Source of the DNA: Chiloscyllium plagiosum
Lineage: Eukaryota
NCBI RefSeq assembly: GCF_004010195.1
Contig: NC_057751.1
Span: forward strand, 7,060,133 to 7,124,132
Direction: 5' to 3'
DNA length: 64,000 bases
The translations under genes were made by a program, and so were the position numbers. The notes under the pieces were generated by a model. That model was not told the origin of the DNA. It did not search any database and saw only the letters and a list, made by a program, of their open reading frames with translations. Below, piece after piece: positions 7,331 through 56,718 of this stretch. Position 1 is the stretch's first letter, and every line of letters begins with the position of its first letter.

Positions 7331-7471
7331 CGGTCTTTAAAATGCATTTCTTCCGTATTGAAACATGTATCCAGCACCTTTCATAATCTCATGATTTCCC
7401 AAGGCACTTTACACACCAGCCAAGTACTTTTGAGGTGTAGTCATTTTTCTCACATCGAAGCACATTTTTGC

Positions 7472-9320: not shown

Positions 9321-9403
9321 AAGGTGCCCATCCTGTTGCAAACCATCTCTATTTATTGGGGCTGGTAACCTGAGCCAGTGTACGCTGACCTGCCTGCACC
9401 AGT

Positions 9404-11449: not shown

Positions 11450-14400
11450 CATAAGTTCATAAGACAAAGAAGCAAAAAGCCCATCGATTCTGCTCTGCCA
11501 TTCAATCACAGCTGATATGCTCCTCACCCCCATTTTCCTGCCTTCTTCCAATATCCCTTCAACCCATTACCAGTTATAAATCCGTCTAACTCCTCCTTAA
11601 AATTACTCACTGTCCCAGCATCCACTGCACTTTGGGGTAGCAAATTCCGCAGATTCATAACCCTCTGGGAGAAGTAGTTTCTCCCCAACTCTGTTTTAAA
11701 TTTGCTGCCCAGATCCAAAGACTATGACCTCTCTTTCTAGAATGTCCCACAAGAGGAAGCATCCACACCTTTTATCATGTTGAATACCTCAATATGACTT
11801 CCCCTCATTCTTCTAAATTCCAGAGAGTGTAGACCTAAACTGTTCAGTCTCTCCTTATATGACAAACTCCTCATCTGGAATCAATCTAGTGAACTACTGC
11901 ATCTAAATAAGGAGATGTAAACTGTGCACAATACTCCAGGTGTGGTCTCACCAATACCATGTGTAGTTGCAACAATACTTCCTCACCTTTATATTCTATT
12001 CCCTTAGCAATAAAATCCAACATTCCATTCACTTTATTACCTGCTGTACCTGCATGCGAGTTTTCTGTGACTCATGAATAATCTCGATCCCTTCAAAACA
12101 CTTAGATCCCTCTGCACCAGAGCACCCAAAGTCTCTCCTCATTAAGATAATACATTGCCTTCCCATTTTTTCGATCCAAATGCATGACCTTACACTTATC
12201 CACATTAAATTCCATCTCCCATATTTTGGCCCACTCTCCTAACCTATCTATATCCATTTGTAAGGTTCTTATTTCCTCATTGCAATTTACCTTCCCACTT
12301 AATTTTGTGACATCTGCAAATTTGGCTATAGAGTCTTGTATTCCTGAATTCAAGTCATTAATGTCAATTGTAAATTGCTGGGGTCCAAGGACCAAACCCT
12401 GTGGCACCCCACTAGTTATATCTTGCCATCCAGAAAAACACCCATTTATCCCAACTCTCTGTCTTCTGACCATCAGCCAGTCATCTATCCAGGCTGATAA
12501 ATTACCCTTATCCCATATGATCTAACCTTGTGAATTAACCTTTTACACCTTCTCAAACACCTTCTGGAAGTGCAGATAAATGAGGTCTATAGCATCCCCA
12601 TTATCCACCTTGCTTGTTACTTCTTCGAAGAACTCTCACAAATTAGTTAAGCATGATCTGTCCTTGATAAAACCATGCTGACTCTGATTGTGTTTTGATT
12701 TTCCAAATGTCCTGATATTGCTTCTGTGATAAGTAATCCTAATAACGGAACGATTTGATAATTATTTCCCAACAGATAAATATTTTCCAACAACAGATGT
12801 TAAACTTACTGGTCTGTATTTTCCCACATTTTACCTCCCTCCGTTTTTGAATAAGGGCATTATATTAGCTGTTTTCCAATCCACTGGAACCTTTCCCGTG
12901 TCCAGGGAATTTTGGAATATTTTAACCAATGGATCTATGATCTCCATTGCAACTTTGTTTAATATCCTAGGATGTAAGCCATCAGGCCTAGGGGACCTGC
13001 CTATCCTCAATCCTAATAGTTTGCTTAGTACCTTCTCTCTATCTTTGTTGATTGTTCTACGTTCGACCTTATCTATCGTCTCTGACTTGCCTGTTCCAAA
13101 AGGAATGGTACTGTTGTCCTCCACTGAGGCAAAGTATTGATTCAGCATCTCTGCCATCTCAGTGTTCCCCACTATTAATTGTGCACTTTCATCTTCCAAG
13201 GGGCCAACATTCACATTAGCAACTCTGCTCCCTTTTGTATACCTATAGAAGCTTTTGCTATCGTTTTTAATATTTTGTGCAGGTTTTCTTTTGTAATTAA
13301 TCTTAGCTCTTCTTATTAATTTTTTATTATCCTTCTGTTTATGTTTGAAAGTTTCCCAGTCTTCCATCCTGCCACTGGCCTTTGCAATATGGTATATCTT
13401 AGTTTTTGACTTTATGTTGTTCTTGACCTCCTTGTTTAGCATGGATGTTTTTTACCTTCCTAAACATGTTTCTTCCTCACTGGGATATATTTTAGTTGTT
13501 AGGAACTGAATTGTTCCTTAAACGTCTGCCGCTGATTATCCGCTGTCTTACCATTTAGCCTTCCTGCCCAATCTACTCAGGCCAAATCTGTCCTCATGCC
13601 TACATAGTTTCCTTTGTTTAATTCCAGAACACTACTTTGGGATTCCACTTCCTCACCACCAAACTGAATTTTGAATTCTGTTATACTATGGTCACTAGCC
13701 CCCAGAGGATCCTTAACTATCATGTCATCAATTAATCTTTCCTCATTACACAAACCCAAATCCAGAGTAAAGTTGTGCTAGAAAAACACAGCAGATCAGG
13801 AAGCATCTGAGGAGCAGGAAAATCGACGTTTCGCGCAAAAGCCCTTCATCATTCCTGATGGAGGACTTTTGACCAAAACGTCGATTTTCCTGCTCCTCGG
13901 ATGCTGCCTGACCTGCTGTGCTTTTCCAGCACCACTCTAATCTTGACTCTGATCTTCAGAATCTGCAGTCCTCACTTTTGCCAAATCCAGAGTAGCCTGC
14001 TCCTTGATTGGTTCCACAACATACAGCTCCAAGAATCAATCTCTAATACATTCAGTGAACTCTGCTTCCAGGCTACCCTTGCCAATCCGATTCTTCCAAT
14101 CTATGTGCATGTTAAATCATCCAATTATTATTGCCATACCTTTCTTGCAAGCCTTTAATATTTCCTGGTTTTTACTCTGCCCCATTGTAGAACAACTGTT
14201 TGGAGACCTATAGATTACCCCGACCAAGTACTTCTTCCCTTCGCTATTTCTTGTTTCTACTCAGACTGATTCCACAACTTGATCTCCTGTGCTTAAATCA
14301 TTTCTGATTACAGCATAGATCACTTTCTTCACCAGTGAGACCACTCCACCTCCTTTTCCTTTCCGTCCATCTTTCCAAAATGCTGAGTACCCCAGGATAT

Positions 14401-15310: not shown

Positions 15311-16779
15311 GTGGTGCATCGAGGAAATGTTAAACCTTGACAGGTTATGGATTCTCACAGAGCTTTTTCTCTCTTCTTCTGGCCTTCCATGAGAGCAAAG
15401 TGAAACCCAACAGAAAGTGAGTAACCACGAACCAAAGTCTTCGCTGAATTATTATTTTTCAAAGCAATGTGTTGATCTGTCATTTTATAGGCAAATTATA
15501 ATTCACAAAACATCAAATTGGTCTGACACTGCTACAGTGACAGTCACAGCATGACAGTAATTAAAAGCCTGCAGATTTGTCAGTGAAATAATCTGCGAGA
15601 TAGATAAAAATATAATGGATGATGAAGAGTGGAAATTCTGAGCCCAGTGGTCCATGCTGCAGAAAGACCTTGTCACTTCAGTCCTCTTGACCGCAATCTG
15701 AACTGTCTAGGTTGTTATCTCACAAGATGAAAGAAATTCATTAGCATTTGTCAACGAAGAGCTTCATTGATCGAAGTTGGGTAATGTTTCTCTGTCACTG
15801 CCTGGCTGAAATAAAATGGGGGCCCGTTGAATGCTCCCAAACTGAGTGCTTCATCCAACTCTGAAGAGGACCACCAGAAATATGGAATTATCATATTAAA
15901 CCAAGCACGTTGCTCCATTCTTGGGTTTGAAAGGTTGACAATGAATGCCCCTGCCTTGCTGAAGGTTGGTGTCTCACAGCTCCTCCTCTTTTTTTATCAT
16001 TGCATTACCTGAGGAGGATTAATTCAGATGGTCAGGAACCAAGTTACTGTTGTTCCATGCAGAAGTTTGACAGACTGCATGTCTCATTTGATGCCCACTG
16101 CCCTTGGATCCCTGATTAGCATCTTTCCTTGAAATAATATGGTGGCTTTATTTTCTGACCTCAAAAAAATCAAACAAGAATTGCTCTGGGGAGCAGATCA
16201 CGTTGCCATAACAAACCAGTTCTGTGCTGTGGAGTCCCATTATTGCCCAGACAACTGGCTGAAGACCACTTGACTCCATTTCACACACTGTAATGAACAC
16301 ATCTTAGAAAATCTAGCTAGACTGGCCCATAAACTCGTGAGTTGGGATGCGCTTGTGCATTCTAACACTCATAGTAAATAGAAAATCTTTAGTCAGAACC
16401 TGAAAACAATTTATGCAAGGTGCAGGCAGCAGAAAAGGAGCAATGATTTATTACACAAAGTGCAGGTTTGAGCTGGTTATCTCAGGTCTGTATTACAGAC
16501 AGGAAGGCAATCAAGTTACTACACATAACAGAGTTGTAAAATAGTTCATAACCAGCCTGATGCAAGCATGTAATCTCAGTCACAACATGATCTCAGTGTT
16601 CACTTCATCCTGCCTCATTAAGTTTCAGTTCAGGCTCAGGTTCCCGAGGTCGGTGTCACATGCAATGGCCCCCCCAAAACACTTTGTTTTGTAGTATCTA
16701 TCCATTCCGTTTCGATGTATTCCTGGGAAAAAAAGACAAACAGTTCTTTATTGTGAGATAAATGCATTTATTTTCTTTA

Positions 16780-17420
16780 TTCTTTCATGGGATATGGGCA
16801 TCACTAGAAAGGCAAGCATTTGTTGCCCAGCCTGTTATCCCTTGAGAGCAGTTAAGAGTCAACCACATTACTGTGGTTCTGACTTCACAGGTCGAGCAGA
16901 TCAGGTAAGGACAACACTTTTCTGTCCTTAAAAGATGTTAGTGAACCAGATGGAATGTCACACCGATCAATGGTATTTTCATGGTTGACATCACTGTACG
17001 TCACAGAGATGTACTTTTGCAAATCTGAACATCTTGTATTTACTCATGAGATGTGGGCATTGCAGACTGGCCAACATTTATTGACTATCTCCAGCTGTCC
17101 TTGAGAAGATGATGGTGAGCTGCCTTCTTGAACCACTGCAGTCCATAATGAATGAATTTAAATTCCAAGTTAAACTAAATTGTGCCAGTTTCTTAAAGAA
17201 CCAGCAGTCACCACCTTGATGTTGAATGACCAAGTGTAATTCCTTTGTTTATTAAGTGAAATATCCTTCTCAACAGTCAATATTCTCAGAGTCAACCACG
17301 TTGGTGCAGGTTTGGAATCACATATAGGCTAGACTGCGTGATTACAGCAAATTTCCTTCCTGATTGATAGATTATCAGTGGATCTGATGACTTTTACCAT
17401 GACCCAGTCATTGTACCATC
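16780..17420 (-). mobile_element. Cluster of decayed tRNA-SINE and LINE-tail fragments (second family)
   Basis: Three pieces sharing CATGGGAT.TGGGCAT...GCATTT.TTGCCC and AGAGTCAACCAC motifs with 32815-33190. Confidence 0.65.
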
Positions 17421-17862: not shown

Positions 17863-18174
17863 GTGGCTCAGTGGTTAGCACTGCTGCCTCACAGCACCAG
17901 GGTCCCAGGTTCGATTTCAGCCTTGGGCGACTGTCTGTGTGGAGTTTGCACATTTTCTCCCCGTGTCTGCGTGGGTTCCCTCTTGGTGTTCCGGTTTCCT
18001 CCCACAGTTCAAGGATGTGCAGGTCAGGTGAATTGGCCATGCTAAATTGCCCATAGTGCTCAGTGCATTAATCAGAGGGAAATGGGTCTGGGTGGGTTAC
18101 ACTTTGGAGGGTCAGTGTGGACTGGTTGGGCCAAAGAACCTGTTTCCACATTGTAGGGAATCAAATCTAATCTG
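17863..18174 (+). mobile_element. HE1-type V-SINE
   Basis: GTGGCTCAGTGGTTAGCACTGCTGCCTCACAG...CCTGTTTCCACATTGTAGGGAATC. Confidence 0.92.
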
Positions 18175-18383
18175 ATGTTTGATAAGTACAAATCAGAAAC
18201 TATTGCTGGGAAGAGAACATTAGAATTATGAGGAGAAGCTGGGACGCTATTGGGTATTGGGCTCCTATAACCTGCTGTAGGTAAGACCGTTGAACTGTAA
18301 GAAATAGGAGGAGGCCATTTGGCCCCTCAAACCTGGTGCACTATTCCATACACTGATATTCCTCTTGTTCCCCTCAATTCGTT

Positions 18384-21009: not shown

Positions 21010-21188
21010 CCCATGAGTTGATACAGGTACATTTGCTCCAACTGGAAGCTGGAGTGGAATTTCTTGACTTAACCAACAGATTGTGTGTGACACCAGTGGA
21101 ATGGGTTAACTTAAACGTTAACCTCTTCAGAGGCTTATCTTCGCCAACAGCATCTGTCCTGTCGAGCACCTTCAGAATCTCAATGTTT

Positions 21189-21780
21189 TGTTATGGACCC
21201 GGCCAGATCTCTCAAAATATTTTGAGAAGGTAGCCTCGACCCTAATGCTTTCTTATTTTAAAGGCAGATGTGAAGTGAATATTAGGGTGTGATGCAGCTG
21301 GTCAAAATACATGGCTTTAAGCAAAACAGAATTTATTTAAACGCAACAGTTGAAACATGAACAAAACAGCATTTAGAATATCTGAACCTTTTGAAAACTC
21401 AGCCAACTCGATACCACAACTTAACTAAGGAGCTGTTCCAATTCTCACAACATCCCATAAACACACCCCTTGACAAAAGGGAAATTCAAGCACAAGTTCT
21501 GACAGGCAAGAGAGATTTCAGAGAGAAAAATCAGTCATAGATCATCTGCTGATGCATGGAACCTTTTTGCACTACTGCAGTTTCTGACTGCCTACTACCA
21601 GCAGCTTCTCTGCTACAACTAAACCAAACTAGAAAATTCCTGAACTGGGATAAGTGGCCACCCCTGCAATTTTTAAACTAGGCTCTTTACGAAACATTTT
21701 GGCACCTCTGCCTTTACAACCTCTCTTTTAAAAAAAGCCCAAGGATAAACTAACCTTGTGAAAGTGACAGCATGATCACA
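21189..21780 (-). mobile_element. Solo LTR family A
   Basis: TG...CA ends (TGTTATGG...CATGATCACA) with 4-bp duplication GTTT. Confidence 0.85.
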
Positions 21781-21927
21781 GTTTCAAGAAGATCACCTCA
21801 CATTTTTTGGACTCCAGTAGCCAGTGAATTATGAATTGTCACTACTTCACTGGTTAATTTCAATCACTCCTTCATTACTTTCACAAATTCAGCATCGTAC
21901 ATGACTTGCCCAAGAATTTCATGAAGT

Positions 21928-24347: not shown

Positions 24348-24534
24348 GGAGAAAATGCGGACTGCAGATGGCTGGCCATCAGAGTCAAGAGTGTGGTGCT
24401 GGAAAAGCACAGTAGGTCAGGCAGCATCCAAAGAGCGGGAGAATCGACTTTTCGGGCATAAGCCCTTTATCAGGATTCTTCTGCTCCTCGGATGCTGCCT
24501 GTCCTGCTGTGCTTTTCCAGCACCACACTCTCGA
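24348..24534. mobile_element. Penelope-like fold-back insertion (family 1)
   Basis: Inverted arms; 14-bp duplication CTCATGGTTTAGTG (24334-24347, 24535-24548). Confidence 0.88.
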
Positions 24535-25572
24535 CTCATGGTTTAGTGTGCAAACCTTGTTCAGTTCATAGTTTTCTTCATTCCTGAGTCAGAACATAGT
24601 TGGTTCAAACTCCATGCTTACTCCACTCAACCTCAATCAGGCTTGTTCAACAGATGTCCTACAAAGATTCCTAACTGGCCTATGGATGGTCTTCCAAATA
24701 CAGGAATTAAAAGTCTGAGATTCTGCAAGGATATGCTTTTCACATCAGAGGCTGTTTCTCTCCCGTGTTCACAACACAGTCTCTGATTGGAGGAGCGTTG
24801 GACAAACATTGGGAGCATCATTTAGCCTGAGGCCCGTGCACCAGAATATTTGGCGGCAGAGGCTAGCTTGCCGTGAGCAACGGTGAAAGTCATGGTTGAC
24901 AACATTCAGATCACTGTTTTTCATTGGGTTTAATGTTTTACTTACAGAGGAGATCCAGAGTTCAGGTTTCTCACATACACCAATGATATGACACCAGCAG
25001 CTCTGCAGAGAGTTCAGTCAAGCTCCGAGAGAGAGCAATGCTTAATTCATAAGTCACAGCTCTTCTTTTGAAACGTCTTCAAATTCAGTCATGAAATGAA
25101 CTTTTCATACTCCTTCAAGGAGCACTGTTGTTACCAGATAAATAACAACTGGAGGGTTTTACTCAGTGACCTGTTTGCTACTTGCACACAGTAACCTTCA
25201 TGTCATTGACTGGTTGCAGAAACCTTTCAGTCCACATACTTAAAACATTCACCAATTTCCTTTTATCCATGATATTATCAAGGCACTACCTTAGTGGAAC
25301 AAATCAGTGAGTGTGTGCGCTAATGTTGAACATGAAACAGTGAAGAGCAGTCCAGACCCTTCGGCCCTTGATGTTGTACCAACCCTTTATCCTATTCTGA
25401 AATCAAACTAACTTACATAAAGCAGGGACATATAATTGTCACACTGTTTTCACAGACCTGTTCTTATTGTATGATTCTACTGCTGCTCTCCCGTGGTCCG
25501 GTTAACCCTGGGCCAGGCTTTGGTAACTCCATGTTTTGATTGCTGTTCGCTTTGTCTCTTTTCTCTTTCCAG

Positions 25573-26904: not shown

Positions 26905-26971
26905 TGTATGCATCATGTTTGTTCAGCCAGAAGGACATAGAGCAGTAGAGTCATAGAATTGGCACAGAAAT

Positions 26972-27345
26972 AGATTAGAATCCATACTTAGAATTAGAAT
27001 CCATGCAGTGTGGAAACAGGCCCATCGGTCCAACAAGTCCACACTGACCCTCCAAAGAATAACCCAACCAGACCCGTTCCCTGAACCTATTACTCAACAT
27101 TTACCCCTTACTAATGGGCCAAACCTATACATCCTTGAACACTGTGGGCAATTTAGCATGATCAATTCACCTAACCTACACATCTTTGGATTGTGGGAGG
27201 AAACCGGAGCACTCAGAGGAAAACCACACAGACACGGGGAGAATGTGTAAACTCCACACAGACAGATGCCCGAGGCTGCATTCGAACCCGGGTCTCTGGT
27301 GCTGTGAGGCAGCAGTGCTAACCACTGAGCCACCATGCTGCTCCC
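26972..27345 (-). mobile_element. HE1-type V-SINE
   Basis: CAGTGTGGAAACAGGCCC...GCAGCAGTGCTAACCACTGAGCCACC. Confidence 0.92.
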
Positions 27346-31135: not shown

Positions 31136-31652
31136 ATAGAAACCCTATAGTGTGGAAACAGGCCCTTCGGCCCAACAAGTCCACCTGTCCCTCTGAAGAG
31201 TTACCCACCCAGACCCATTCCCCTACCACTCTATATTTACCCAGACTAATGTGCACATCCCTGAACACTACGCGCAATTTCCCATGTCAATTCACCTATC
31301 CTCCACATCTTTGGATTGTGGGAGGAAACTGGAGCACCAGGAGGAAACCCACGCTGACAAGGGGAGAACATGCAAACTCCACAAAGACAATCACCTGAGG
31401 CTGGATTTGAACCTGGGTCCCTTGCATTTTGAGGCACCAGTGCTAACCACTGAGCATCGTGCCACTCCAACCACTGAGCCATCATGTTGCCCTGGGATCT
31501 TGTGGTGCAGTGGACTCCACAAAGACAGTCACCTGAGGCTGGATTTGAACCTGGGTCCCTTGCATTTTGAGGCACCAGTGCTAACCACTGAGCCATCGTG
31601 CCTCTCCAACCACTGAGCCATCATGTTGCCCTGGGATCTTGTGGTGCAGTGG
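31136..31652 (-). mobile_element. HE1-type V-SINE with tandemly duplicated head
   Basis: Full SINE; unit 31376-31513 is repeated at 31514-31652. Confidence 0.9.
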
Positions 31653-32814: not shown

Positions 32815-33190
32815 TTTTTTAATTCATTCATGGGACATGGGCGTCGCCGGCTAGCCAGCATTTATTGCCCATCCCTCGTTGACTTTGTACTGAGTGGCTT
32901 GCTAGGCCATTTCAGAGGGCAACTGAGAGTCAATCACATTGCAGTGGACCTGGAGCCACATGTGGGCCAAACCAGGTATGGATGGCAGATTTCCTTCCCT
33001 GAAGGACCTCAGTGAACCAGATAGACTTTTCCAGACAATCGACAGAGGTTTCGTGGTCACCAGGAAGGTCCTAAATTCCAGATTATTATTGATTTCAAAT
33101 TCCACCATTTGCCATTACAGGATTCCAACTCATGTCCCCAGAACGTTAGTTGAGTTTCTGGATTAATAGACTAGCGATAATTGCTTCCCC
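32815..33190 (-). mobile_element. tRNA-headed SINE of the second family (head and tail both shared with the LINE at 33945)
   Basis: Reverse complement matches 49397-49722 and the 5' end of the LINE at 33945-34185. Confidence 0.82.
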
Positions 33191-33197
33191 TTCTTTG

Positions 33198-33500
33198 TGT
33201 CCCAAGGCACTGTATAATTTTTCAAGTGTGGTCACTATTATCCTTTTGGAAATGTGGCAGACAATTTTCACATAGCAAGCTCCCATAAACAAGGTAATGA
33301 TCACATGACCTCATTTTAGGCATTGGCTGAGACATTGGAAATTCTCCCGTTTCTCAACTGAGTATCATAGGGATCTTTCATACACATGTGAGAGAAGGAT
33401 TGTTATCTAAGTTCGATAGTTTACCTGAAATTTGTGCCTCTGAAAAAGTGCAGCAGTCCCTGAGGGATTCACTGAGTGTTAGACTGGAATTTCTACTATA
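33198..33500 (-). mobile_element. DeuSINE (SacSINE1/AmnSINE-like) relic
   Basis: GTCCCAAGGCACT...TTCAAGTGTGGTCACT...CAATTTTCACATAGCAAGCTCCCA resembles the reverse-complemented Deu domain. Confidence 0.6.
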
Positions 33501-33944
33501 GCTTCTGGGTAGTGTAATTCAGGATCAGCCCAGTTTTGTTCACAGTGAGGAAAAAAGCGTAGAGGGAGAGTACATCAAATACGGCTATTAGAAAACTGGA
33601 GTTGTCAAGGAACTGGACAGTTTTGGCATCAGTTTTCATTAAGCATTTTTTTAAAAACCTACCTGGACAGTTTGACGAGGTCTTGCACATTGATGAACTG
33701 TTTATGTGCAAAGGAAATGCTGCCAGCAATCTTCTTTCTATGATTAGGTGTAAGGACCAAATTGGTTTACACTATTATAGGATCAATAACTGTTGAGTCA
33801 CAATGGGATGAGGCTGTTGTCTTAATATGCATTTTATTGCTTGATAGCAATTAATTACAAATGGCAGTAGTTTGTTAGATATCATTGCAAAGAATGTGAG
33901 GAGTTCTGTGAATAGGGTGATGCTGGGAAAGAGTGGGAATACTC

Positions 33945-34886
33945 CTGGATCACGGACCCACGGCTAATGTTCTGGGAATATTGGCCTGAATCTCATCATG
34001 ATCAGGATGGTGAAATCTGAACTCAGTAAGTATTTGGAAAAGAACCACTGACTTGAAAACCGATTTGGTTCACTCATGCCCTACGGGAAGGAAATTAGCC
34101 TTACATGGTCTGGCCTGCATGTGACACCAACCCAAAGCAATGTAGTTGACTCTCAACTGCCCTCTGAAATGACCAAGCAAGCCACTAATTTGTATCAATC
34201 ACTATCAAGTCGCTACGAAGAAATGAAGTGGATGCATCACCTGGCATTGACCGAGGTACTGGAAAAGACAATGGCAGAAATAGCCCTGTCAACCCTGCCA
34301 AGTCGTCCTTCCTAACACCTGGGTGCTAGTGTGAAAATTGGGAGAGAGCTGTCTCACAGACAGGTCAAGCAATAGCCTGACATAACCATTCTCAAGGAAT
34401 CATACCTGACAGGCAATGTCCCAGAGATGACCATCACCATCCCTGGACATGTCCTGTCCCACTAGCAGCACAGACCCAGCACAGTGGTGTACCGCTGGGA
34501 GTCCTTAACACTGACTCCGGACCCCATGAAGTGTGATGGCATCAGGCTAAACATGGGCAACGTAATCTCCTGCTGATTACCACGTACTGTGATGATGCTG
34601 CTCCTTTAACAAGGTTGTGATGTCCTTGGTTTGTTTTTCAAAAGAGTTTTACATGACAACAGGTTCTGAAATGTCTGGCTTAATCTATTTGAAGAAACTT
34701 TTAAGTTTAAAAAAACACTTGTACTATGAAAGTGGGTAGGGGGAGAATGGGTCGCCAGTTCTCCGAGCTCAGCTTTTTCTCTCGTTTGGTTTGTTTTGGC
34801 TTTTCACAGCCAGCAGTCAGTCCGTTCTGAGGCTGATGGTCAAAGAAACAGCTACATGGATGAAGGTGTCCCATGCTGAATCTCTC

Positions 34887-34923
<37 letters not shown>

Positions 34924-37375
34924 GTAAGAAGCTGTGTTTGATTTTGCCTTTTGTGCCAAGGGAGTTTGGAACAGTATCATTCAGTTAGGATAATCTGTTG
35001 GGGTTGTCGGATCGGTGACGTTATTCCGTATTCTGTTCTCTTTTGTTTGGTTTCATTCGGTAATATTGTAAATAAATTGTTTCATTTAAATCTAAGTGGT
35101 TTGACCAGTGGCATCACTCCTGGAATATCCACTATACACCTGCTCAAAACAACTAGCAAAGTTAGGGTCTGGGCTGCTTTCTTGAAATGTTTTGAGCGGG
35201 TCTAGCCTGGTCCATAACAGAACTATCATCCCTGGATTGATGAATTGGTTCTTGGAGGAAGCACTGAGGATGGAAAGGGTGCAAAATGTACTCTGGGTGG
35301 GGGATTTCAATGTCCACCACCAACAGTGGCTTGGCAGAGGCACTACTGATCAAGCTGGCCGGGTTCTAAAGGACATAGCTGCCAGTCTGGACCTGCAGTA
35401 TGCGGTGAGGGAACCCAACATGATGGAAAAACATACCTCACCTCATCATAACCAATCTGCTCGTTGGAGATGCATCTCTCCTTGACAGTGTCAGTAAGGG
35501 TGACTGCACAGTCCTTGTGGAGACGAACTCCTGCCTTCACAATGAGAACAGGTTCTATCGTGTTGTGTGGCACTGTCACCATGCTAAATGGGGTAGACTT
35601 GGAACAGATCTCGCAACTCTTGCTGTGGGCCATCAACCGCAGCAGATGTACTCCAACACCATCTGCAACTACATAACCCGACAGATCCTCCACTCAACCA
35701 TTATCATCCAGTAAGGGAATAAACCCTGGTTTTATGAAGAGTGCAGGAGGACATGCTAGGAACAGTACAGGTATCTATAGCTAAAGATGAGCTAAGTGAT
35801 CCTAGCACGAATGGATCAACTGCTACATCCAGTTGTGAATGGTGTTGGACAATTCAACAACTCACTGGAGAAGGAGGCTCCACAAATATCTCCATCCTCA
35901 ATGGTGGAAGATCTCAACACATATGTGTAAGAGATAAGGCTAAAGCATTCACTGCTATCTTCAGCCAGAAGTGCCAAGTAGATGATCTATCTCAGCCCCC
36001 TCCAGTGGTCCCCAGTATTACAAATAATAGTCTACAGTCAATTTGATTCACTCCCTGCTACCCTTATCCTAAAACTATAACATCTCCTTCAAGATTGTCC
36101 CACAAGAGGAAACATCTGCTCCACTTTATCTTACACATCTCAATTAGATCTCCTCTAATTTTCCTAAACTTGATCTCAAGAGTTGGTACTCACAGCACTG
36201 GATACTGCAAAAGGCCATGGTCCCTGGTAACGTTCCAGCAATAGTACTGAAGACTTGTGCTCAAGAGCTTGCCCTAGCCAAGCTTTTCCAGTATTGTTAC
36301 AATACTGGCATCTACCTGAGGATGTGGAAAATTGGACACAAAAAGCAGGACAAATCCAACTTGACCAATTACTGCCTTATCAGCCTACTCTTCATCAGTA
36401 AAGTGATGGAAGGTATCAACAACAGTGCTATCAAATAGTAGCTGCTCAGCAATAACTTGCTCAATGATGTCCAGTTAGGGTTTCGCCAGGGGCACTCAGC
36501 TCCTGACCTCCTTAAGCTTTGGTTCAAACATGGGCTAAAAAGCTGAATTCCAGAGATGAGGTGAGAGTGACAGTCCTTGACATCAAGTGTGGCATCAGTG
36601 AGCCCCAGCAAAACCAGAAAAATGGGCATTGGGGCACACTGTCTGCTGGTTGGAGTCATACCTGGCACATAGGAAGATGATTGTGTTATTGGAGGTCTGT
36701 CATCTCAGCTTCAGGAAATCAATACAGGAGTTCCTCAGGGTAGAGTCCTAGGCCTGACCATCTTCAGTTGCTTCATTCAATGACCTTTCCCTCCATCAAT
36801 ATGTTAGAAATGGGAACATTCACTAATGATTGCAAAATGTTCAGTGCCATTCACAATTCCTCAGATACTGAAGCAATCCATATTCAACTGCAACAAAATC
36901 TGGACGATATTCAGGCTTGGGCTACAAGTGCCAAATAATATTTGTGCTTCATGATGACCATTTCCAATAAGAGAGAATCTAAACACTGCCCCTTGACATT
37001 CAGTTATGTTACCATCAGTGAATCCCCAACAATAAACATCCAAGGGGTCACTGTTGACCAGAACCTCAACTGGACACGCCACATAAACATAGTGGCTACA
37101 AGAGCAGGACAGAGGCGAGGAACACTGTGATAAGTAACTCACCTCCTGACTCGCCAAAACCTGTCCCTCATCTACAAGGCACAAGTCAAGAGTGTGATGG
37201 GGTACACCCCACTTGGCTGGTTGAGTGTAGCTCCAGCAACACTCAAGAATCTTGTCACCATCCAGGACAAAGTAGCCCATTTGATTGGCACGACATCAAC
37301 AATCACCCACTCCCTCCACCACTGACATTCCATATCAACTGGGTGTGTTGTCCACAAGATGTACTGCACAAATTA
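33945..37375 (+). mobile_element. Decayed CR1-group LINE, second family (APE + RT, no visible ORF1)
   Basis: APE pieces (PDITILKESYL near 34380; NVLWVGDFNVHHQQWL, 35192-35485), PGNVPAIVLKTCA..NYCLISLL..SKVME (36217-36438), GVPQGRVLG near 36725. Confidence 0.88.
34588..35219 (+). mobile_element. Solo LTR family A inserted in the LINE
   Basis: TGTGATGATG...GGTCCATAACA; flanks GTAC/GAAC; AATAAA at about 35071; contains (CT)n at about 34893-34921. Confidence 0.83.
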
Positions 37376-37914: not shown

Positions 37915-38407
37915 TCAAGGTTTGCATAAAGAATTGTAGCTTGGGTGCTGGTTGCCATGGCGAAAATGAGGACTGCAGATGCTGGAGATCAGAGTCAAGA
38001 TTAGAGTAGTGCTGGAAAAGCACAGCAGCTCAGGCAGTATCCGAGAGGCAGGAAAGTCGACGTTTCGAGCAAAAGCCTTTCATCCTCATGAAGGGCTTAC
38101 GCCTGAAACGTCGATTTTCCTGGTCCTCGGATGCTGCCTGACATGCTGTGCATTTCCAGCACCACTCTAATCCTGCTAGTTGCCATGGTTGTGGGTAGTT
38201 CGCCGAGCTGAGAAGTTGATTTGCAGATGTTTCGTCCCATGTCTGGGTGACATCTTCAGTGCTTTGGAGCCTCCTGTGGAGCACTGTTCTACTGTGTCAA
38301 GTACTGTACAGGAGACTTCAAAGCACTGAAGATGTCATCTTGACAGGGGACGAAATATCTGCAAATCAACTTCCCAGCTCAGCAAACTTACCCACAACCA
38401 CGGCAAC
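37915..38407. mobile_element. Poseidon-type Penelope fold-back insertion with two hammerhead-like cores
   Basis: Same terminus as 4623; inverted arms about 38180-38275 and 38310-38407; duplication TTAGTATCT (37906-37914, 38408-38416); cores at 38223-38262 (-) and 38323-38362 (+). Confidence 0.85.
37961..38173. mobile_element. Family 1 Penelope fold-back nested in the Poseidon-type element
   Basis: Duplication TGCT(G/A)GTTGCCATGG (37946-37960, 38174-38188). Confidence 0.87.
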
Positions 38408-40164
38408 TTAGTATCTAAATGGAGAAAACTTTCAGACTTCTTCAGTGGAGAGGGATCTGGATGTCCTCGTGCATGAGTCACAGGTAACTAATGCAGGTAC
38501 AACAGGGAGGAAGGAAAGCAAATATAAGTTAAACATTTATTGCTAAAGGAATAGAGTATGAAAGTCTGGAAACGTTTCTGCAACTGCACAAGGCATTAGT
38601 GAGACCCCACCTGAAGTACTATGTATCATTTTGGTCCCTTTGCTTCAGGAGGGACATAGTTGTATTGGAGGCAGTTCAGAGTAGGTTCACTAGGTTGTTT
38701 CTAGAGATGAGGGGCTTCTCTTTTGAAGAGAGATTGGACAGTTCGGCCTGTACTGTCTCGAGTTTAGGAAAATGAGAGGAGATCTAATTGCGATGTGTGA
38801 GATATTGAAGTGGTTGACAAAGTGGAGCAGATATATCCCCTTGTGGGACAACCTTGAAGGAAAGGTTATAGTTTTAGGATAAGGGTCGCAGATTTCAAAC
38901 AGATGTGGAAAAATTACTTCTCTTCAAGGGTCATGAATCTGTGGAAATTAGTAAATTTAAGGAGGAGATAGATACATTTTTAATCAGTAATGGGTTGAAG
39001 GGTTATAGATAGCATAGAGGAAAGCGGAGTTGAGGCCAAGATGAGATAAGACATGATTATATTGAATGTAGGCTCCAGAGGGCTGACATGGCTTGTCCTG
39101 CTCCGAGTTCTGCTGTTCTACTATCTTCACAAACACCACTAAGGTCTCAAGTGGGTTAGAAGTAGTGACAAGCTGCCATTTGGTGACCAAAGCTCACTAG
39201 CTTGATGACAGCTGATTAAGAGTCTTCACTTCCAGCACGTGAGTGTCATTGGCACAGCTGGCATTTACTGTTTGAGGAGTTTGGTTGTGAGTCGCCTTGT
39301 TTAGTCTGTGTAGAGCTTTGTGAGGAAGAGAGTGCGAGGATTTTGACCCAGCAATAATTAGGGAGCAGCCAAGAAATAGAACCCGATGTTTAAGTGCCGC
39401 CTCAGCCTTTCAGCTCCTTTCAGGTGGTGGGGTGTTGTTCCAGCAGCCCCTGAGCTTCCCATTTTTTTGGGCGCATTTGAATTTGTGGCCTGTGGTATAA
39501 AAAACAGGGAATGAGTTCAGCTCAGCGCAACACACAGTGCAGCTTCCTGAAAAGGCACTGGGTGTTTCATGGTTCAAATGGTTCACATTGGTCACGAACG
39601 TTGCAGTCGAATGGGAAGAAATGGAAAAATATTATCTTTCACTTTTAATAAGATTCTGCTCGCCCGCTGTGCATCTGCATGTGCACAGTCTCATCTGTTT
39701 GAAGTGGATAAGGCACTTCACATGCGTCAGTGATTAAGTAGGTTCATTATGTCCTCATGTAAACAACCGCCTGGTACTGTGTAAATGAGGGCTCACTGAA
39801 GAATAGGTCTTAGTTAATTAAGACAACATTAATGTGAATTGAATCAGACTTCATGTTTAATATTTAAATTAAATCTAATCGTCATTCTTTACAAACCATC
39901 TCCAGTTTTTTTCCACATAAGTTACCACCATTTCTATACTCGTTACTGTACACTGTATTGTTCTGCTCGCAATCTTACAATGGCAGTTACAACATGTGTT
40001 CATTTTACTCCAGCTTTTTCACATCCGCAACAAGTCTTGCTCTGCTATCTCAATGTTACAAAGACATTTTGATGGTTAAGCACTGGTTAAAATTGGAGGG
40101 AAGAATTTCAATAGCTTCTGTTTCTCATCTAAAAAGGTTCTCTGAACCACTTTACGCATTTTTT

Positions 40165-41580
40165 TCAGGTCTATTGGAGTCTATTATAAAAATGTGATAA
40201 CTGGACACTTAGAAAATAGAAATAGGATGACACAATGTCATCATGGATTTATGAAAGGGAAATTATCTTTGACAAACTCACTGGAATATTTGAGGACATA
40301 ACTAGAATAGATGAGGCAGAGCCAATGCATGTTGGTGAACTTGAGTTTTCAGAAAGCTTTTGAAGACTAGATTAATTTCGGATATCTGGTCGGCATGAAT
40401 GAGTTAGACCAAAGGGTCTGTTTCTGTGCTGTACATCTCTATGATTCTAAGCCCCACTAAAAGGTTAGTGTATAAAACCACAGCACATTAGATTAGTGGT
40501 AATATACTGGCATGGACTGAGAATTGGTTAACAGATGGGAAACAAGGAGTAGGAATAAATAGATCTTTTTCAGAGTGGAAAGTGAAATGCTGGGCACCAC
40601 AAAGACCAGTTCGTAGGACCCCAGCTATTCACAATGTATAGCAAGAGTCTGGATGAGAATATCACATGTCATGTTTCCGATTTTGCTGATGGGTGAGACT
40701 GTGAAGGGTGAGAAGGATGGAATGGGGCTTCAACGTAATTTAAGCAAGTCAAGTGAGAAGATGACCTGGGGGGTGCAGTGAGAGAGGGACTCACTGAGAT
40801 CCTTGTAGAGGGAGGAGGAGCGCTTCTTCAAGGTAGGCATCCTTGCAAGAGGATTCACAGTAGGTTAAGATCAACTAGGAGAAAGTGAGGACTGCAGATG
40901 CTGGAGACCAGAGTTGAAAAGTGGGGTGCTGGAAAAGCGCAGCAGGCCAAGCAGCATCCGAGAAGCAGGAGAATTGACGTTTTGGGCATAAGCCTGAAGA
41001 AGGGCTTATGCCTGAAACGTCGATTCTCCTGCTCCTCGGATGCTGCAAGGCCTGCTGCGCTTTTCCAGCACCCCACTTTTCAACTCTGGTCTCCGGCATC
41101 TGCAGTTCTCACTTTCTCCAAGTCAAGTGAGAAGGCAGTAAGTGAGGAGGCAGTTGCACGGCGAATGTAGTGTAATGTGGATAAGTGTAAAGTAGTCCAC
41201 TCTGGATGGCAGAGTATTATTAAAATGGTGATTGATTGGGAAATGTTGACATAGAAAAGGATCTAAGAATCTTGGCACGCGGGTTGCCATCAGACTGCAG
41301 GTGCAGCAAGCAGATGGGAAGCAAATGGTATGCTGGCCTTCATCACAAAAGCGTTCAATTACAGGAGCAAAGAAGCCATACCACAGCTGTGCAGAGCCTG
41401 GGTGAGGCCCATCTTGGAATATTTTATATCGTTTTAGTTTCCTGACCTCAGAAAAGATATGCTTGCTGCAGAGAGAGTGCAGCAAAGGTTCACTGGACTG
41501 ATTCCTGGGATGGCACATTTGTTATATGAGGAAAGGTTGGGTTAACTGGAATTTAGGAGATCGAAATGGGATCTTATCGA
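40165..41580 (+). mobile_element. Decayed CR1 LINE ORF2 segment with nested insertions
   Basis: CATGGATTTATGAAAGGGAAA (HGFMKGK), TTTCAGAAAGCTTTTGA (FQKAF), GTGAGGCCCATCTTGGAATA; HER1 tail inserted at about 40365-40450. Confidence 0.8.
40761..41118. mobile_element. Family 1 Penelope fold-back with long arms and 5'-ORF remnant
   Basis: Arms about 40878-40994 and 41002-41119; 16-bp duplication CAAGTCAAGTGAGAAG (40745-40760, 41119-41134); CTGAAGA a gggc ttat gcct GAAA cgtc at 40994-41021. Confidence 0.9.
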
Positions 41581-41666
41581 AATAAGTCTTTCTCTGCTAT
41601 TTCACTACAACAAAGATATTTTGATGGTTACGCACTGGTTTGAAATTGGTGGGAAGAATTTCAATA

Positions 41667-42010
41667 AAATCCCCACAATATAGAAACAGGCCATTTGGCC
41701 CAACAAGTCTACACTAACCCTTCAAAGAGTCACCCAACTGCAGCCATTCCCCAACCGTAATACTGTATATTTCCCCTGACTAATACACCTAACCTAAACA
41801 TCCCTGAACACTACAGGCAATTTAGCATGGCCAGTTCACCTAACTTGCACATCTTTGAACTGTGGGAGGAAACTGGAGCACCCACAGGAAACCCACGCAG
41901 ACACTGGAAGAATGTGCAAACGCCGCACACAGTCACCCAAGGCTGGAATTGAACACAGGTCCCTGGCACTGTGAGGCAGCAGTGCTAACCATTGAGTCAC
42001 TGTGCTGCCC
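41667..42010 (-). mobile_element. HE1-type V-SINE
   Basis: Full length, inserted in the second copy of a local duplication. Confidence 0.92.
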
Positions 42011-43032
42011 TTAATAGCTTCTGTTTCTCATCTGAAAAGGTTTTCTGAACCATTTAATGAGCTTTATTTCAGGTCGATTGGAGTTTATCATAAAGAAAGT
42101 GATATCTGGACACTTAGAAAATAGAAATAGGATGACACACTGTCACCATGGATGTATGGAAGGGAAATTATGTTTGTCAAACTCACTGGAATATTTGATG
42201 GCTGAACAAACTGGATGCAGGAATTATATTCTCCGGGCTGGGGGTGTTCCAAGCCAAGGAGTCATGGTTTCAAGGAGTCATTGGTTCAGGAGAAGTGGGA
42301 AGCCATTTTGGATTGAGATGAGGATGGTGAACCTGCAAATTTCTCTGCCTCAGAAGACTGAGGAGATGAAGTTGCAAAAGATATTTAAGAATGAAATCGA
42401 TAGATTTCGACAGGTGAAAGATATTAAGCTGTATTGGGGAGAGCTTGGGAGTAAGGCATTGAGATAGCAGGTCAGCCATGGGTGGGTTGAAGGATCTCCT
42501 CCTGCTCTCATTTTATGTGTTTCTGAGGTAGGAACTGTTACTCCACTTTTTATAAGGATAGTGGTTTGAATGTGTCTTGCAAACCTTTAGAATGGAAGCA
42601 AAATGAATTTGAGGCAAATTTAAATTTTAGTTGCAGCTTGGTGTTTCTTAGTTTTGAATGAGACAGATATATAGTGAACAATGAAAAATCCTTGGCCCAA
42701 AATACAAGGGCTCATTTTAATCTCATGCTCGCCGCAACATCTATGAGGATTGATGGAATGAGCACCTATGTGCTGCTCAGTACGTCTATCTTAATTGCAA
42801 TGGAAAATCATTTTACTCAGTGTGGGGAGTGGAAGAGTTTCTGCAGAAAACCCAGTTCCATCAGTTTCCCAATAAATGATGCATCTTAAAATTGTGGACA
42901 TAGTTAATACTTTTCCTCTGGATATTACTTAAACATCTGGGTATTTTCTCTTTCTATTGTGGGTAATTTGATGTATTTGTTGCTGGTTGAGTTTTGAATT
43001 TCAGTTGCCAATGTTTCATTAATCCTCCTCAG

Positions 43033-43260: not shown

Positions 43261-43804
43261 GTATTGTACTGAAGGAAGCATTTACTTGACCTAGTTTCAC
43301 TTACCGCAAGAGAGCTTGACATCTAACTCCAAGCTTTAATTTTCACTTGCTTCAGCGCAGCTCCTGTGACAAATAGATATTTTTAAACTTTTGAATATTT
43401 ACGTGATGCAATCCATTTGAATGGATTTTTACAATGCAGTCTAAGTCATCATCAAAATACGTATCAAATCCCATTTTAAAGGTTACTTTGGAGTCAGCTT
43501 TGATTGTTCTTTCAGGCAGAGAAGAGGGGAAAACAAGGGTAGTGAAGTGGTTGGAAAAATTAAAACGAGAAATGGAGGGAATGTTCATTGCATCAGTAAC
43601 TGATTGCAAGTCACTAAATTTGCATTGTAAACTAATAGTAACCCTGATAAAGCACTGCTCCCACTCATAACAAACAGCAAAGCACTTTGTTGATTGTCTT
43701 CGTCTAACCAGTAGAAAGTGAGGACTGCAGATGCTGGAGATCAGAGTTGAAAAATGAGGTGCTGGAAAAACACAGCAGGCCAGGCAGCATCCGAGGAGCA
43801 GGAG

Positions 43805-43840
43805 AATCGACGTTTCGGGCATAAGCCCTTCTTCAGGAAT
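43805..43840 (-). ncRNA. Minimal hammerhead ribozyme motif (best preserved copy)
   Basis: Reverse complement attc CTGAAGA a GGGC ttat GCCC GAAA CG TC gatt: both core boxes, perfect 4-bp stem II, ACGT palindrome, GUC site; stem I is short. Confidence 0.72.
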
Positions 43841-44301
43841 GAGGCTGGTGTGCCAAGTGGGCTGAGATAAAGGGTAGGGGGGAGGGAATTTCTGTCGCAA
43901 ATTCACCTGCACCTCCACACACATCATTTACTGTATCTGTTGCACCCAATGTGGTCTCTTCATTGGGAAGACAGGCCGCCTACTTGCGGAACGTTTCAGC
44001 AAACACCTCTGGGACACCCAATTTCTGTCGCAAATTCACCTGCACCTCCACACACATCATTTACTGTATCTGTTGCACCCAATGTGGTCTCCTCTTCATT
44101 GGGGAGACAGGCCGCCTACTTGCGGAACGTTTCAGCAAACACCTCTGGGACACCCTCACCATCCAACCCAACCGCCCTGTGGCTGAACACTTTAACCCCC
44201 CCTCCCACTCCGCCAAGGACATGCAGGCCCTTGGCCTCCTCCATCACCAGATCCTGACCATACGCCGCCTGGAGGAAGAGCCCACTTGGCACAACAGCCT
44301 C

Positions 44302-49135: not shown

Positions 49136-49396
49136 CCAGTCACACTTCCTGTATTGATTAGTGAATGTAAACTATTTCATGTAAAAGGAGAGGCGAAGGC
49201 TTAGTGGTGTGAGAGCTGGACTGTTAACCCAGACACCCACCTCTGATCCCCAGTTTAATTCAATGGCCAAAGAGACCCATACCCGAAAGCTGACTTTTTA
49301 ACACAGACTGGAGTGTTATTTTGGACCTGTGCTGCAGCACAGTTTATACATTCAGGAGAGGTGAGATGTAAAGACAAAGCTGAAGGTATGGTAAAA

Positions 49397-49722
49397 GGGA
49401 GGTGATGGTGTAGTGGTATTATTGCTGGGCTGTTAACACAGAGATCTAGGTTTAAATCCCACCAGGGTAGAATTTGAATCCATTTTGTTTTTAAATCTGG
49501 AATTAAGAGTCAAATGGTGATTGTCCAATGGTTGACTGTCACTATCTGGTTCACTCGTGTCCTTTCGGGAAGAAAACTGCCATCCTAACTTGGTCTGGCC
49601 TACATGTGACTCCAGATCCACAGAAACGTGGCTGACTCTTAACTGCCCTCTGGGCAATTAATGATGGGTAATAAATGCTTCCCTGGTCAGCGATGCGCTC
49701 ATCCTGTGAATGAATTTTTAAA
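49397..49722 (+). mobile_element. tRNA-headed SINE of the second family
   Basis: GGGAGGTGATGGTGTAGTGG (A box), GGTTTAAATCCC (B box-like), body GGTCTGGCCTACATGTGACTCCAG, tail GGGCAATTA..AATAAATGCT..GTGAATGAAT. Confidence 0.82.
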
Positions 49723-51609: not shown

Positions 51610-52590
51610 GAGTCATAGTGATATACAGCATGAAAACAGACTCTTCAGTCCAACTCATTCATGCTAACCAGGCATCCGAAACTGACCGAGTGCCATTTGC
51701 TAGCATTTAGCCCATACCCCTCCAAACCCTTCCTATTCATGTACCTGCCTTGATGCCTTTTAAGTGTGAAAATTGTACCAGCATCCACCATTTCCTCTGG
51801 CAGCTCATTCCAAAGACGCACCATCCTCTGTGTGAAAAGGTTGCCTCTCAGGTCCATTTTAAATCTTTTCCCCCTCACTGTGAACTTATGCCATCCAGTT
51901 TGGGCTCCCCAGCACTGGGAAAATGACCTTGGATGTTGACCCTATCCATGCCACTCATAATTTTATAGACTTCTGTAAGGTCACCCTTCAGCCTGCAACA
52001 CTCCAGGGAAAAAAAGCCCCATTCTGATTAGATTACTTACAGTGTGGAAACAGGCCCTTTGGCGCCCAACAAGTCCACACCGACCCTCTGAAGAGCAACC
52101 CACCCAGACCCATTCCCCTACATTTACCCCTTTACCTAACACTAAGGGCAATTTAGCATGGCCAATTCACCTAATCTGCACATTTTCGGACTGTGGGAGG
52201 AAACCAGAGCACCGGAAGAAACCCACACAGACAGGGGGAGAATGTGCAAACTCCACACAGGCAGTCCCCTGAGATGGGAATTGAACCCTGGTCTCTGGCA
52301 CTGTGAGGCAGCATTGCTAACTGCTGTGCTACCGTGCCACCCATTCAGCTGTTCCCTGTAGCTCAAACACTCCAATCCGAGCAACATCCTTGTAAGTCTT
52401 TTCTGTATCCTTTCAAGTTCAACAACATCTTTCCCATGGCAGGGAGAACCATAGAAGTGAACGCACTATTCCAAAAGTGGCCTCACGAAAGTCCTGTACG
52501 GCTGCAACATGACTTCCCTTCTTTGATACTCAGTGCACTGACCAATTAATAGCAAGCATGCCAAACGCCTTCTTCATGTCTCTGTCAATC
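51610..52590 (-). mobile_element. HER1/CR1 LINE 3' fragment interrupted by a SINE
   Basis: ORF 51645-51878 FTQRMVRLWNELPEEMVDAGT. Confidence 0.9.
52025..52342 (-). mobile_element. HE1-type V-SINE inside the LINE
   Basis: GATTAGATTACTTACAGTGTGGAAACAGG...ACCGTGCCACCC; CCCATTC repeated at both ends. Confidence 0.92.
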
Positions 52591-52848: not shown

Positions 52849-53806
52849 AGAAAATGTGTTGCTGGAAAAGCGCAGCAGGTCAGGCAGCATCCAAGGAGCA
52901 GGAGAATCGACGTTTCGGGCATAAGCCTCCCTTCAGGAATGGGGAAAGTGTGTCCAGCAGGCTAAGATAAAAGGTAGGGAGGAGGGACTTGGGGGAGGGG
53001 CATTGGAAATGCGATAGGTGGAAGGANNNNNNNNNNNNNNNNNNNNNNNNNNNNNNNNNNNNNNNNNNNNNNNNNNNNNNNNNNNNNNNNNNNNNNNNNN
53101 NNNNNNNNNNNNNNNNNNNNNNNNNNNNNNNNNNNNNNNNNNNNNNNNNNNNNNNNNNNNNNNNNNNNNNNNNNNNNNNNNNNNNNNNNNNNNNNNNNNN
53201 NNNNNNNNNNNNNNNNNNNNNNNNNNNNNNNNNNNNNNNNNNNNNNNNNNNNNNNNNNNNNNNNNNNNNNNNNNNNNNNNNNNNNNNNNNNNNNNNNNNN
53301 NNNNNNNNNNNNNNNNNNNNNNNNNNNNNNNNNNNNNNNNNNNNNNNNNNNNNNNNNNNNNNNNNNNNNNNNNNNNNNNNNNNNNNNNNNNNNNNNNNNN
53401 NNNNNNNNNNNNNNNNNNNNNNNNNNNNNNNNNNNNNNNNNNNNNNNNNNNNNNNNNNNNNNNNNNNNNNNNNNNNNNNNNNNNNNNNNNNNNNNNNNNN
53501 NNNNNNNNNNNNNNNNNNNNNNNNNNNNNNNNNNNNNNNNNNNNNNNNNNNNNNNNNNNNNNNNNNNNNNNNNNNNNNNAGGAGCGGTAAGTGCAGGAGA
53601 TGCGGTGGAGGGCATCGTCGACCACGTCTGGGGGGAAATTGCGGTCTTTGAAGAAGGAGGCCATCTGGGTTGTACGGTATTGGAACTGATCCTCCTGGGA
53701 GCAGATGCAGCGGAGACGAAGGAATTGAGAATATGGGATGGCGTTTTTACAGAGGGCAGGGTGGGAGGAGCTCTGATCTCCAGCATCTGCAGTCCTCACT
53801 TTCTCC
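52849..53806 (-). mobile_element. Family 1 Penelope element spanning the assembly gap
   Basis: Minus strand SSHPALCKNAIPYSQFLRLRCICS (PLE RT thumb region); flanks TATAACA(A/C)TGCATGC (52834-52848, 53807-53821). Confidence 0.88.
53027..53579. other. Assembly gap (553 N)
   Basis: Run of N. Confidence 1.
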
Positions 53807-56389: not shown

Positions 56390-56718
56390 AAATCCATACA
56401 ATGTGAAAGCAACGAGTCCACATAACCCCTCTAAAGGACATCCCACCCAGGCTCATCCTCCTACCCTATTCCTGACACCTTGCATTTCCCATTTCAAACA
56501 CACACATCTCTGAACACTATGGGCAATTTATCATGGCCAGTCTACCTAACTTGTACATCGTTGGACTGTGGGAGGAAACCAGAGTACCTGGCAGAGACCC
56601 AGGAAGACTCAGGGAGAATGTGCAAACTCCACACAGACGGTTGCCCATGAGTGGAATCGACCCTGGATCCCTGGCACTGTAAGGCAACACTGCTAACCAC
56701 TGAGCCACTGTGCCACCC
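56390..56718 (-). mobile_element. HE1-type V-SINE
   Basis: GTGCAAACTCCACACAGAC...GCTAACCACTGAGCCACTGTGCCACCC. Confidence 0.9.

Follow-up and report, generated by a model that had tools for sequence, protein, structure and literature searches.

The shark Chiloscyllium plagiosum harbors, in a 64,000-nucleotide stretch of contig NC_057751.1 (hereafter the window, numbered from its first base), a decayed long interspersed nuclear element (LINE) at about 33915-37375 on the + strand. This main copy encodes an endonuclease and a reverse transcriptase (RT) in a single open reading frame (ORF), and its 5′ start is homologous to a tRNA-headed short interspersed nuclear element (SINE). The evidence makes it likely that the copy represents a LINE family that itself bears such a head, and that an internal deletion within the family gave the SINE. 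In the standard picture, LINEs use RNA polymerase II (Pol II) and SINEs RNA polymerase III (Pol III) (PMC10886601). It also holds that a SINE originates when an RNA-gene head is joined either to the tail of a LINE or to a LINE that has undergone deletion, for which a headed LINE family would substitute a one-step route.

The proposed mechanism begins with a CR1-group LINE family of elasmobranchs, compact and with a single ORF, near Zenon, whose protein would combine an APE endonuclease with the RT, and whose 5′ untranslated region (UTR) of ~300 bases would open with a tRNA-derived head. An internal deletion removing nearly the whole ORF would leave the head, the 5′ UTR, the last codons and the 3′ UTR. 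The product would be a ready SINE, endowed with an internal A/B-box promoter and with the 3′ signal for target-primed reverse transcription by the LINE protein. We infer that the family at large, rather than this insertion only, possesses the head, and that the direction ran from LINE to SINE. Trans-mobilization of the SINE through its tail would follow the precedent of other SINE/LINE pairs, for which it is established.

Architecture of the main copy

Downstream of its head, the main copy continues with a 5′ UTR stretch that corresponds to the SINE body (34049-34191, +), as judged from alignments, loose contig ends and variant letters; the SINE junctions fall at 34166 in a short form and at 34186-34191 in a long form. 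It is followed by a LINE-only leader and short N-terminal arm (34192-34300, +), with a candidate start codon at 34223 whose frame, in this copy, differs from that of the endonuclease. The coding region, also on the + strand, is broken throughout. It comprises the N-terminal part of the APE endonuclease (34301-34587), identified by homology to relatives, the remaining APE domain and a linker (35220-36054; Pfam Exo_endo_phos_2, E 6.6e-06, on 35222-35410), and the RT with the C-terminal region (36174-37375), again recognized by homology to relatives, whose 3′ end is lost. The copy thus has no tail and ends near 37375. Two later insertions, neither assigned a strand, interrupt it. The first, in the APE domain, is a repeat resembling a solo long terminal repeat (LTR; 34588-35219); its ends read TG...CA, and its 4-base target duplication is imperfect. 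The second (36055-36173) is a piece of another repeat also present at 38758-38891 and 11703-11817. The solo-LTR-like repeat contains an internal (CT)n run and has related copies at 7471-7947 and 21185-21782.

The first APE strand begins at ~34301-34330, where it aligns with the N-termini of intact relatives, and hence only 115-145 bases past the SINE-like part. This spacing leaves no room for an ORF1, as the first-pass annotation of the window, made from the sequence alone, had held. An APE endonuclease followed by an RT marks the element as an APE-type non-LTR retrotransposon. The RT pieces of the main copy alone gave no Pfam match; they are 61-66% identical to shark RT fragments and homologous to full APE+RT proteins. 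Together these features support a single-ORF LINE that was autonomous only as an ancestral family, the main copy being dead.

A SINE composed of the two ends of one LINE family

Two near-complete copies of the SINE lie in the window. The long form (32815-33187, −) consists of a head without an A box, the body, the long junction, and a tail with AATAAA and an A-rich end, while the short form (49397-49722, +) has an A box at 49406, a B box at 49449, the body, the short junction and the tail. Alignment bears out the earlier claim that the region upstream of the LINE endonuclease matches both SINEs (placed there at 32815-33190 (−) and 49397-49722 (+)): 34049-34186 matches 33037-32893 (−) at 75.9% in an alignment of 145 columns (E 2e-21), while for 34063-34166 and 49544-49652 the figures are 78.9% and 109 columns (E 1e-18). 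A further 5′-truncated SINE copy with the short junction (16770-16954, −) and a LINE 3′ end reduced to the last ORF codons and the tail (17038-17146, −), both absent from the first-pass annotation, were found by alignment. An isolated fragment related to the SINE head (49181-49244, +) came from alignment and Rfam.

The tail, too, is shared. It had been reported to end LINE fragments at 1630, 2805 and 58095, and alignments agree. Four 5′-truncated LINE fragments of the window have one 3′ end in common, which is the SINE tail: the 17038 remnant, a fragment at 1630-2060 (−), a more diverged one at 2800-3375 (−), and one at 58095-58400 (−) that aligns with the 1630 fragment. Because two of them, at 1630 and 2800, match the main copy at its 3′ end, the SINE tail belongs to the same LINE family. 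The tail opens in the last ORF codons, as suggested by weak matches to the C-termini of relatives (E 0.004-0.015). Folding of head and tail revealed no significant structure (z -1.28 to 1.20).

The join between the two ends is abrupt. The long SINE form tracks the LINE 5′ UTR to 34191, and its very next base is LINE 3′ end, with zero gap; the SINE is a bipartite derivative, made of the 5′ end and the 3′ end of one LINE family. With no SINE bases unaccounted for, an internal deletion is the expected origin, and capture of a SINE by a LINE would yield this arrangement only by coincidence. The two junction forms may represent two deletions, or one deletion followed by a later trim. The same geometry bears on a SINE-first history, in which the LINE acquired a new 5′ UTR, consisting of head and body, from an existing SINE that already had the LINE's tail, and a headed subfamily was thereby founded. 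The absence of the head from invertebrate relatives means that it must have been gained at some stage, and Tx1 LINEs are described as having received small-RNA sequence at their 5′ ends (PMC4494074). Yet a switch point would be expected to fall anywhere and to leave a SINE-only middle, whereas the LINE match stops exactly where the LINE-derived tail starts, and this history appears improbable.

Continuity of body and LINE across elasmobranchs

Three DNA runs (organisms A, B and C) and one RNA run were mapped to 33500-34600 at 80% likeness, with 15 of 334 joints and 24 of 19441 pieces shown. Up to 33943 the depth is that of a single copy, and beyond this point it is greater. At both SINE junctions contigs pass straight into the tail, 152, 154 and 162 of them at 34166 and 242, 238 and 234 at 34186 in the three DNA runs. 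Farther on, at the LINE-only positions 34206, 34214 and 34217, variant letters are carried by 46, 42 and 37 contigs in run X1, by 44, 41 and 40 in X12, and by 32, 33 and 27 in X20. Two X12 contigs (organism B), 82% alike, span the junction itself (34145-34298 and 34149-34309) with more than 31 bases on each side. They carry 28 differing letters, as many as the orthologue has in 680, and are therefore paralogues. Ten of the 15 joints shown connect 34171-34203 to 34343-34430. The insertion of the main copy is itself present in organisms B and C (contigs 33503-34182 and 33503-34280) and is therefore old.

Protein records extend the link to the whale shark. A profile-free HMMER search with the APE start returned 11 matches, and eight of the ten looked up are whale-shark gene models. 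Three of these eight (P0117, P0110 and P0109) have translated SINE-body sequence before the APE domain; P0117 matches the SINE body at 66% over 38 residues (E 5e-16), and P0110 reads across the body/LINE junction in a single frame. Other searches were empty. The APE start gave no result in a word-index search. Shark DNA of the family was not recovered from IMG/VR or the JGI metagenomes, whose pattern matches, 10 and 1, lacked BLAST similarity to the window; protein-based scans detected no relative in viral contigs, nor any in metagenomes when the shark alignment was used. A possible translated head at the start of P0117 was also considered and rejected, as it fell outside the top 6 window places and the four heads gave 42, 639, 617 and 605 of 1000 shuffles.

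As read from these sequences, the SINE body is the 5′ UTR of the LINE across elasmobranchs, as a family-wide feature. The opposite possibility, that a 3′-deleted SINE by chance adjoins a 5′-truncated LINE at this locus, would be aided by the great abundance of the SINE family, evident from depth, and by the other insertions in this LINE copy. For the body it is refuted: the same body-to-LINE continuity recurs in paralogues of three organisms and in the whale-shark models, and at the main copy no tail or A-rich end intervenes between the SINE-like body and the LINE. The first-pass annotation had itself raised the case of a SINE simply inserted beside this copy, and that case fails, other copies likewise running from body into LINE; chance adjacency in any form is very hard to credit.

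On the RNA side, a poly(A) single-cell run mapped 99 reads, 98 of them only partly and mostly on the SINE body, and was uninformative on LINE expression. In run X21, ten reads from a poly(A) library depart from the LINE 5′ UTR at 34211, just past the SINE junction, into an A stretch; they may reflect one paralogous locus, internal priming or a short polyadenylated RNA.

The tRNA-like head

Upstream of the body, 33964-34048 (+) forms the 3′ part of a tRNA-like head, including a decayed B-box region, at the LINE 5′ end. Within it, 33964-34039 is colinear with the head of the 32815-33190 SINE at a score of 54, which was reached by 0 of 2000 shuffles, and multi-copy depth begins in the bin 33944-33980 in all three DNA runs. 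Preceding it, 33915-33963 (+) is tentatively considered a decayed head start corresponding to the A-box region. Here, at 33916-33948, the A-box region of the 49397 SINE head finds its best LINE match, in the expected, colinear place; the match is not significant (equaled by 218 of 2000 shuffles, or 35 of 2000 in a narrowed region), and depth is single-copy up to 33943.

A canonical A/B pair occurs only in the 49397 SINE, at 49406 and 49449 with one mismatch each and a 43-base spacing; boxes at tRNA spacing are thus found in one of the two near-complete SINE copies, and at a looser threshold one pair arose in 3 of 12 shuffled windows. ARAGORN called no tRNA in the 64-kb window, the Rfam tRNA match to the head fragment at 49190-49244 is weak (13.3 bits, E 8.1), and folding of the heads gave no cloverleaf. 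With no tRNA called and only that weak Rfam match, the term "tRNA-derived" is owed to the paired boxes and the 43 bases that space them. The earlier reading stands in part: the single-ORF LINE and a SINE made of both LINE ends are supported, whereas a tRNA-like head on full-length copies in general would be an extrapolation, and a role of that head as a Pol III promoter for the LINE is hinted at by base composition.

Several observations weigh against a headed LINE family. The joints have short sides, of 21-42 bases. The gene models may be spliced, leaving adjacency unproven for P0109 and P0117, and P0117 shows no match to the heads at its N-terminus. Among the pieces (24 of 19441) and joints (15 of 334) shown there is no second independent copy running from head to endonuclease; head-to-LINE linkage is confined to this insertion with its orthologues, and SINEs alone may account for the depth over the head. 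The LINE copy has no recognizable A or B box, the best candidates having 3 (A) and 4 (B) mismatches of 11. The short SINE form is possibly a second deletion within the SINE, and two junctions do not prove two origins. Finally, three close invertebrate relatives with upstream DNA (L011, L092 and L169) show no tRNA head.

Such points accommodate the standard bipartite route, in which the LINE starts in the body with its own 5′ end, a deletion derivative later gained the tRNA head (Kojima's model), and the main copy is a chimera, formed when the template changed from LINE RNA to SINE RNA inside the body common to both. SINEs derived from RTE and Vingi are reported to have arisen by the bipartite route (PMC5786205), chimeras due to template switching are known (PMC4494074), and all of the family-wide evidence concerns the body and none the head. 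However, it would require the window's one near-full-length copy to be a rare chimera, and it leaves T-run avoidance along the LINE ORF (see below) unexplained; on balance, it seems rather unlikely. A family of headed LINEs remains the preferred reading, its link to the SINE being real and family-wide for the body, and likely so for the head. Judged from sequence comparison, the head is probably an elasmobranch gain.

Relatives and classification

The closest named proteins are elasmobranch gene models that contain pieces of the LINE (Heptranchias, Mobula, Pristiophorus, Scyliorhinus and whale shark), and the next closest are from Lepidoptera, together with unnamed APE+RT proteins of 930-1000 amino acids on 3.2-3.9 kb contigs. 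Three relatives scanned by Pfam (P0023, P0012 and L091) lack RNase H, and the family qualifies as a compact single ORF without this domain. The RT phylogeny that the first-pass annotation had recommended, here a quick tree of 109 rows in which the window row fills 27% of columns, places the main copy in a 10-row shark/ray clade of elasmobranch pieces (Shimodaira-Hasegawa-like approximate likelihood-ratio support, SH-aLRT, 99). This clade is nested in a 31-row clade with six unnamed lepidopteran rows (SH-aLRT 93). Two canonical CR1 copies of the window lie apart from the main copy.

On this basis the LINE is called CR1-Zenon-like; the tree holds no named Zenon reference, and the label leans partly on a motif. 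It also draws on the naming of a "CR1-Zenon like LINE" among whale-shark repeats in a preprint (10.1101/443036). Compactness is not universal in the group, as bivalve CR1-Zenon consensus sequences average 5.2 kb (PMC10294476).

A set of 160 relative loci, drawn from metagenomes and from contaminants of metagenome-assembled genomes (MAGs), contained no match to the SINE head or 5′ UTR (best E 0.058). An A/B-pair scan of these loci found one poor match (L030) and ARAGORN at 95% one (L153), its output at 80% being noise. Five of the 160 share the RT motif of the shark proteins, and three of these have upstream DNA. Within an invertebrate subgroup (L091, P0008, P0023, P0028 and P0034), the APE start is much like the shark one. 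Eighty of the loci (L091-L170, from GTDB) sit in bacterial or archaeal MAGs, many of the bins being Sedimenticola or Thiodiazotropha, and encode eukaryote-type APE+RT proteins; host contamination of the bins is the most likely explanation. Public shark and ray gene models (P0006, P0007, P0011, P0030, P0044, P0116 and P0118) carry in-frame LINE pieces as apparent exons, which are probably annotation errors, although exonization may account for some.

Depletion of T runs and the polymerase

Pol III terminates at runs of T. The corresponding argument was earlier used to exclude Pol III for SINEU (PMC4494074). Counted on the sense strand of the main copy minus its insertions (2706 bases), the TT dinucleotide occurs 113 times against 152.6 expected, a ratio of 0.74, and runs of at least three T number 13 against 27.4; for neither count was any of 2000 shuffles as low. 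T4 runs number two against 6.6 expected, and T5 is absent, the opposite strand being ordinary at 15 against 14.8. The TT ratio of 0.74 is lower than in all 115 related ORFs of at least 600 codons and all 208 other stretches of the window; in two CR1 controls the ratio is 1.12. Codon usage shows the same tendency: phenylalanine is encoded by three TTT and 13 TTC codons in the LINE, the controls having 25:6 and 15:11, and the xTT/xTC ratio falls below that of other NNT/NNC (p 0.024). One T4 run sits where the shark paralogues read PWFN and the main copy PWFY, and is therefore probably a private mutation of this copy. In L091, a single T4 run is present in 2859 bases, although this contig includes no more than 33 bases upstream of its ORF.

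The poverty in T runs is what Pol III transcription would predict, and thus offers a hint, compositional in kind and drawn from one copy. Pulling the other way, no depletion is seen in three older 3′ fragments with a total of 1313 bases (TT 1.05), and under dinucleotide-preserving shuffles the T4 depletion is lost (112 of 300), so that the signal is TT itself. CpG decay lowers TT mechanically (TG 1.59), though AA stands at 0.97. L091, of the close invertebrate subgroup, is also TT-poor (0.80), with its 5′ end missing, and most relatives are less GC-rich, 12 of 115 reaching at least 43%.

An RNA made by Pol III has no cap and would need another route to translation. Polyadenylated Pol III SINE RNAs are known (PMC12101331, PMC8466645), and the AATAAA of the tail could be usable by either polymerase. 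That Pol III made the full-length LINE RNA is conceivable, though doubtful. Pol II or read-through transcription is a fairly probable alternative, leaving the head as a relic, a helper or a processing signal. A bolder extension is offered tentatively, being on the unlikely side: protein-coding LINEs of ~3.5 kb would be transcribed by Pol III from a tRNA-derived internal promoter, oligo-T terminators would be purged from the ORF, the uncapped RNA would be translated, and SINEs would arise by single deletion, LINE and SINE being two lengths of one Pol III retroposon. If T-run avoidance does reflect Pol III, vertebrates would possess a natural protein-coding RNA of several kilobases made by this polymerase, and cap-independent translation of a retrotransposon would become directly testable; if not, the family is a useful, modest addition to shark repeat annotation.

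Comparison with known SINE/LINE pairs

The nearest precedent is Persaeus, which derives by internal deletion from the lepidopteran CR1-related LINE Zenon (PMC6740152). The resemblance extends to the RT, the shark and unnamed lepidopteran proteins sharing the 31-row clade described above. In contrast to the shark SINE, Persaeus has, according to its description, no tRNA, 5S or 7SL homology, no Pol III promoter and no hits outside Lepidoptera (PMC6740152), and it contains a variable middle, of which the shark SINE has none. The shark derivative bears A/B boxes and the LINE copy itself head sequence, which is not so in Zenon/Persaeus.

A tRNA head joined to a LINE 5′ UTR and a LINE 3′ end is also the composition of the bipartite RTE and Vingi SINEs (Bov-tA, AfroSINE, SINE2-1_ACar and others, PMC5786205; in hagfish, PMC7245038). 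In those the head was added to a deleted element and the LINE has none, whereas here a CR1-group partner shares the head region. A 2018 Repbase survey recognized only RTE and Vingi as contributors of SINE middles (PMC5786205). A headed LINE would extend bipartite SINEs to the CR1 group, and would name the origin of one SINE body.

Protein-coding LINEs with small-RNA-derived sequence exist elsewhere. The element RTE-1_DAn and those related to it belong to the RTE clade, and the sentence that mentions them gives neither position nor function, nor a derived SINE (PMC5786205). The U1- or U2-headed crocodilian Tx1-Mar LINEs, of the Tx1 clade, have heads common to SINEs that hold no internal promoter (PMC4494074). 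Among chondrichthyans, the tRNA-headed SINEs HE1 (with HER1), SacSINE1, SINEX-1_CM and SINE2-1_CM (with CR1-2_CM) share a CR1-like 3′ tail (PMC3747384, PMC1845163), and CR1-Zenon supplies SINE tails in bivalves (PMC11481361). The known chondrichthyan pairs are listed as tail-only and are set apart here by their descriptions; the present SINE may equal SacSINE1 or an elephant-shark family. The literature searched, which excluded Repbase, Dfam and most subscription journals, yielded no tRNA-headed shark LINE with its own deletion SINE, and the family may already be catalogued. The family is thus a variant of known bipartite SINE/LINE pairs, in which the combination of a head-bearing LINE and its own deletion SINE is new within that literature.

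Other repeats in the window

The second A/B-box SINE of the window and the canonical CR1 copies are families separate from the pair studied here. That SINE, presumably HE1 with the CR1 copies as its HER1 partner, is unrelated to the studied SINE, and about ten better-preserved copies with A/B boxes occur at 1-147, 5251-5583, 8070-8399, 17863-18176, 26971-27344, 31136-31465, 41664-42010, 52026-52343, 56410-56731 and 61451-61802. An abundant palindromic short repeat, resembling a miniature inverted-repeat transposable element, has copies that match on both strands and often form inverted pairs (9398-9791, 13761-13990, 24348-24537, 37952-38173, 40873-41127, 43706-43890, 58388-58712 and further sites). 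At 53027-53579 the assembly has a gap of 553 N. A local duplication, 85-89% alike, relates 40026-40293 to 41578-41666 and 42013-42198, a SINE dividing one of the copies. Two ~135-base tandem duplications, both near-identical, lie at 43887-44155 and 31376-31652.

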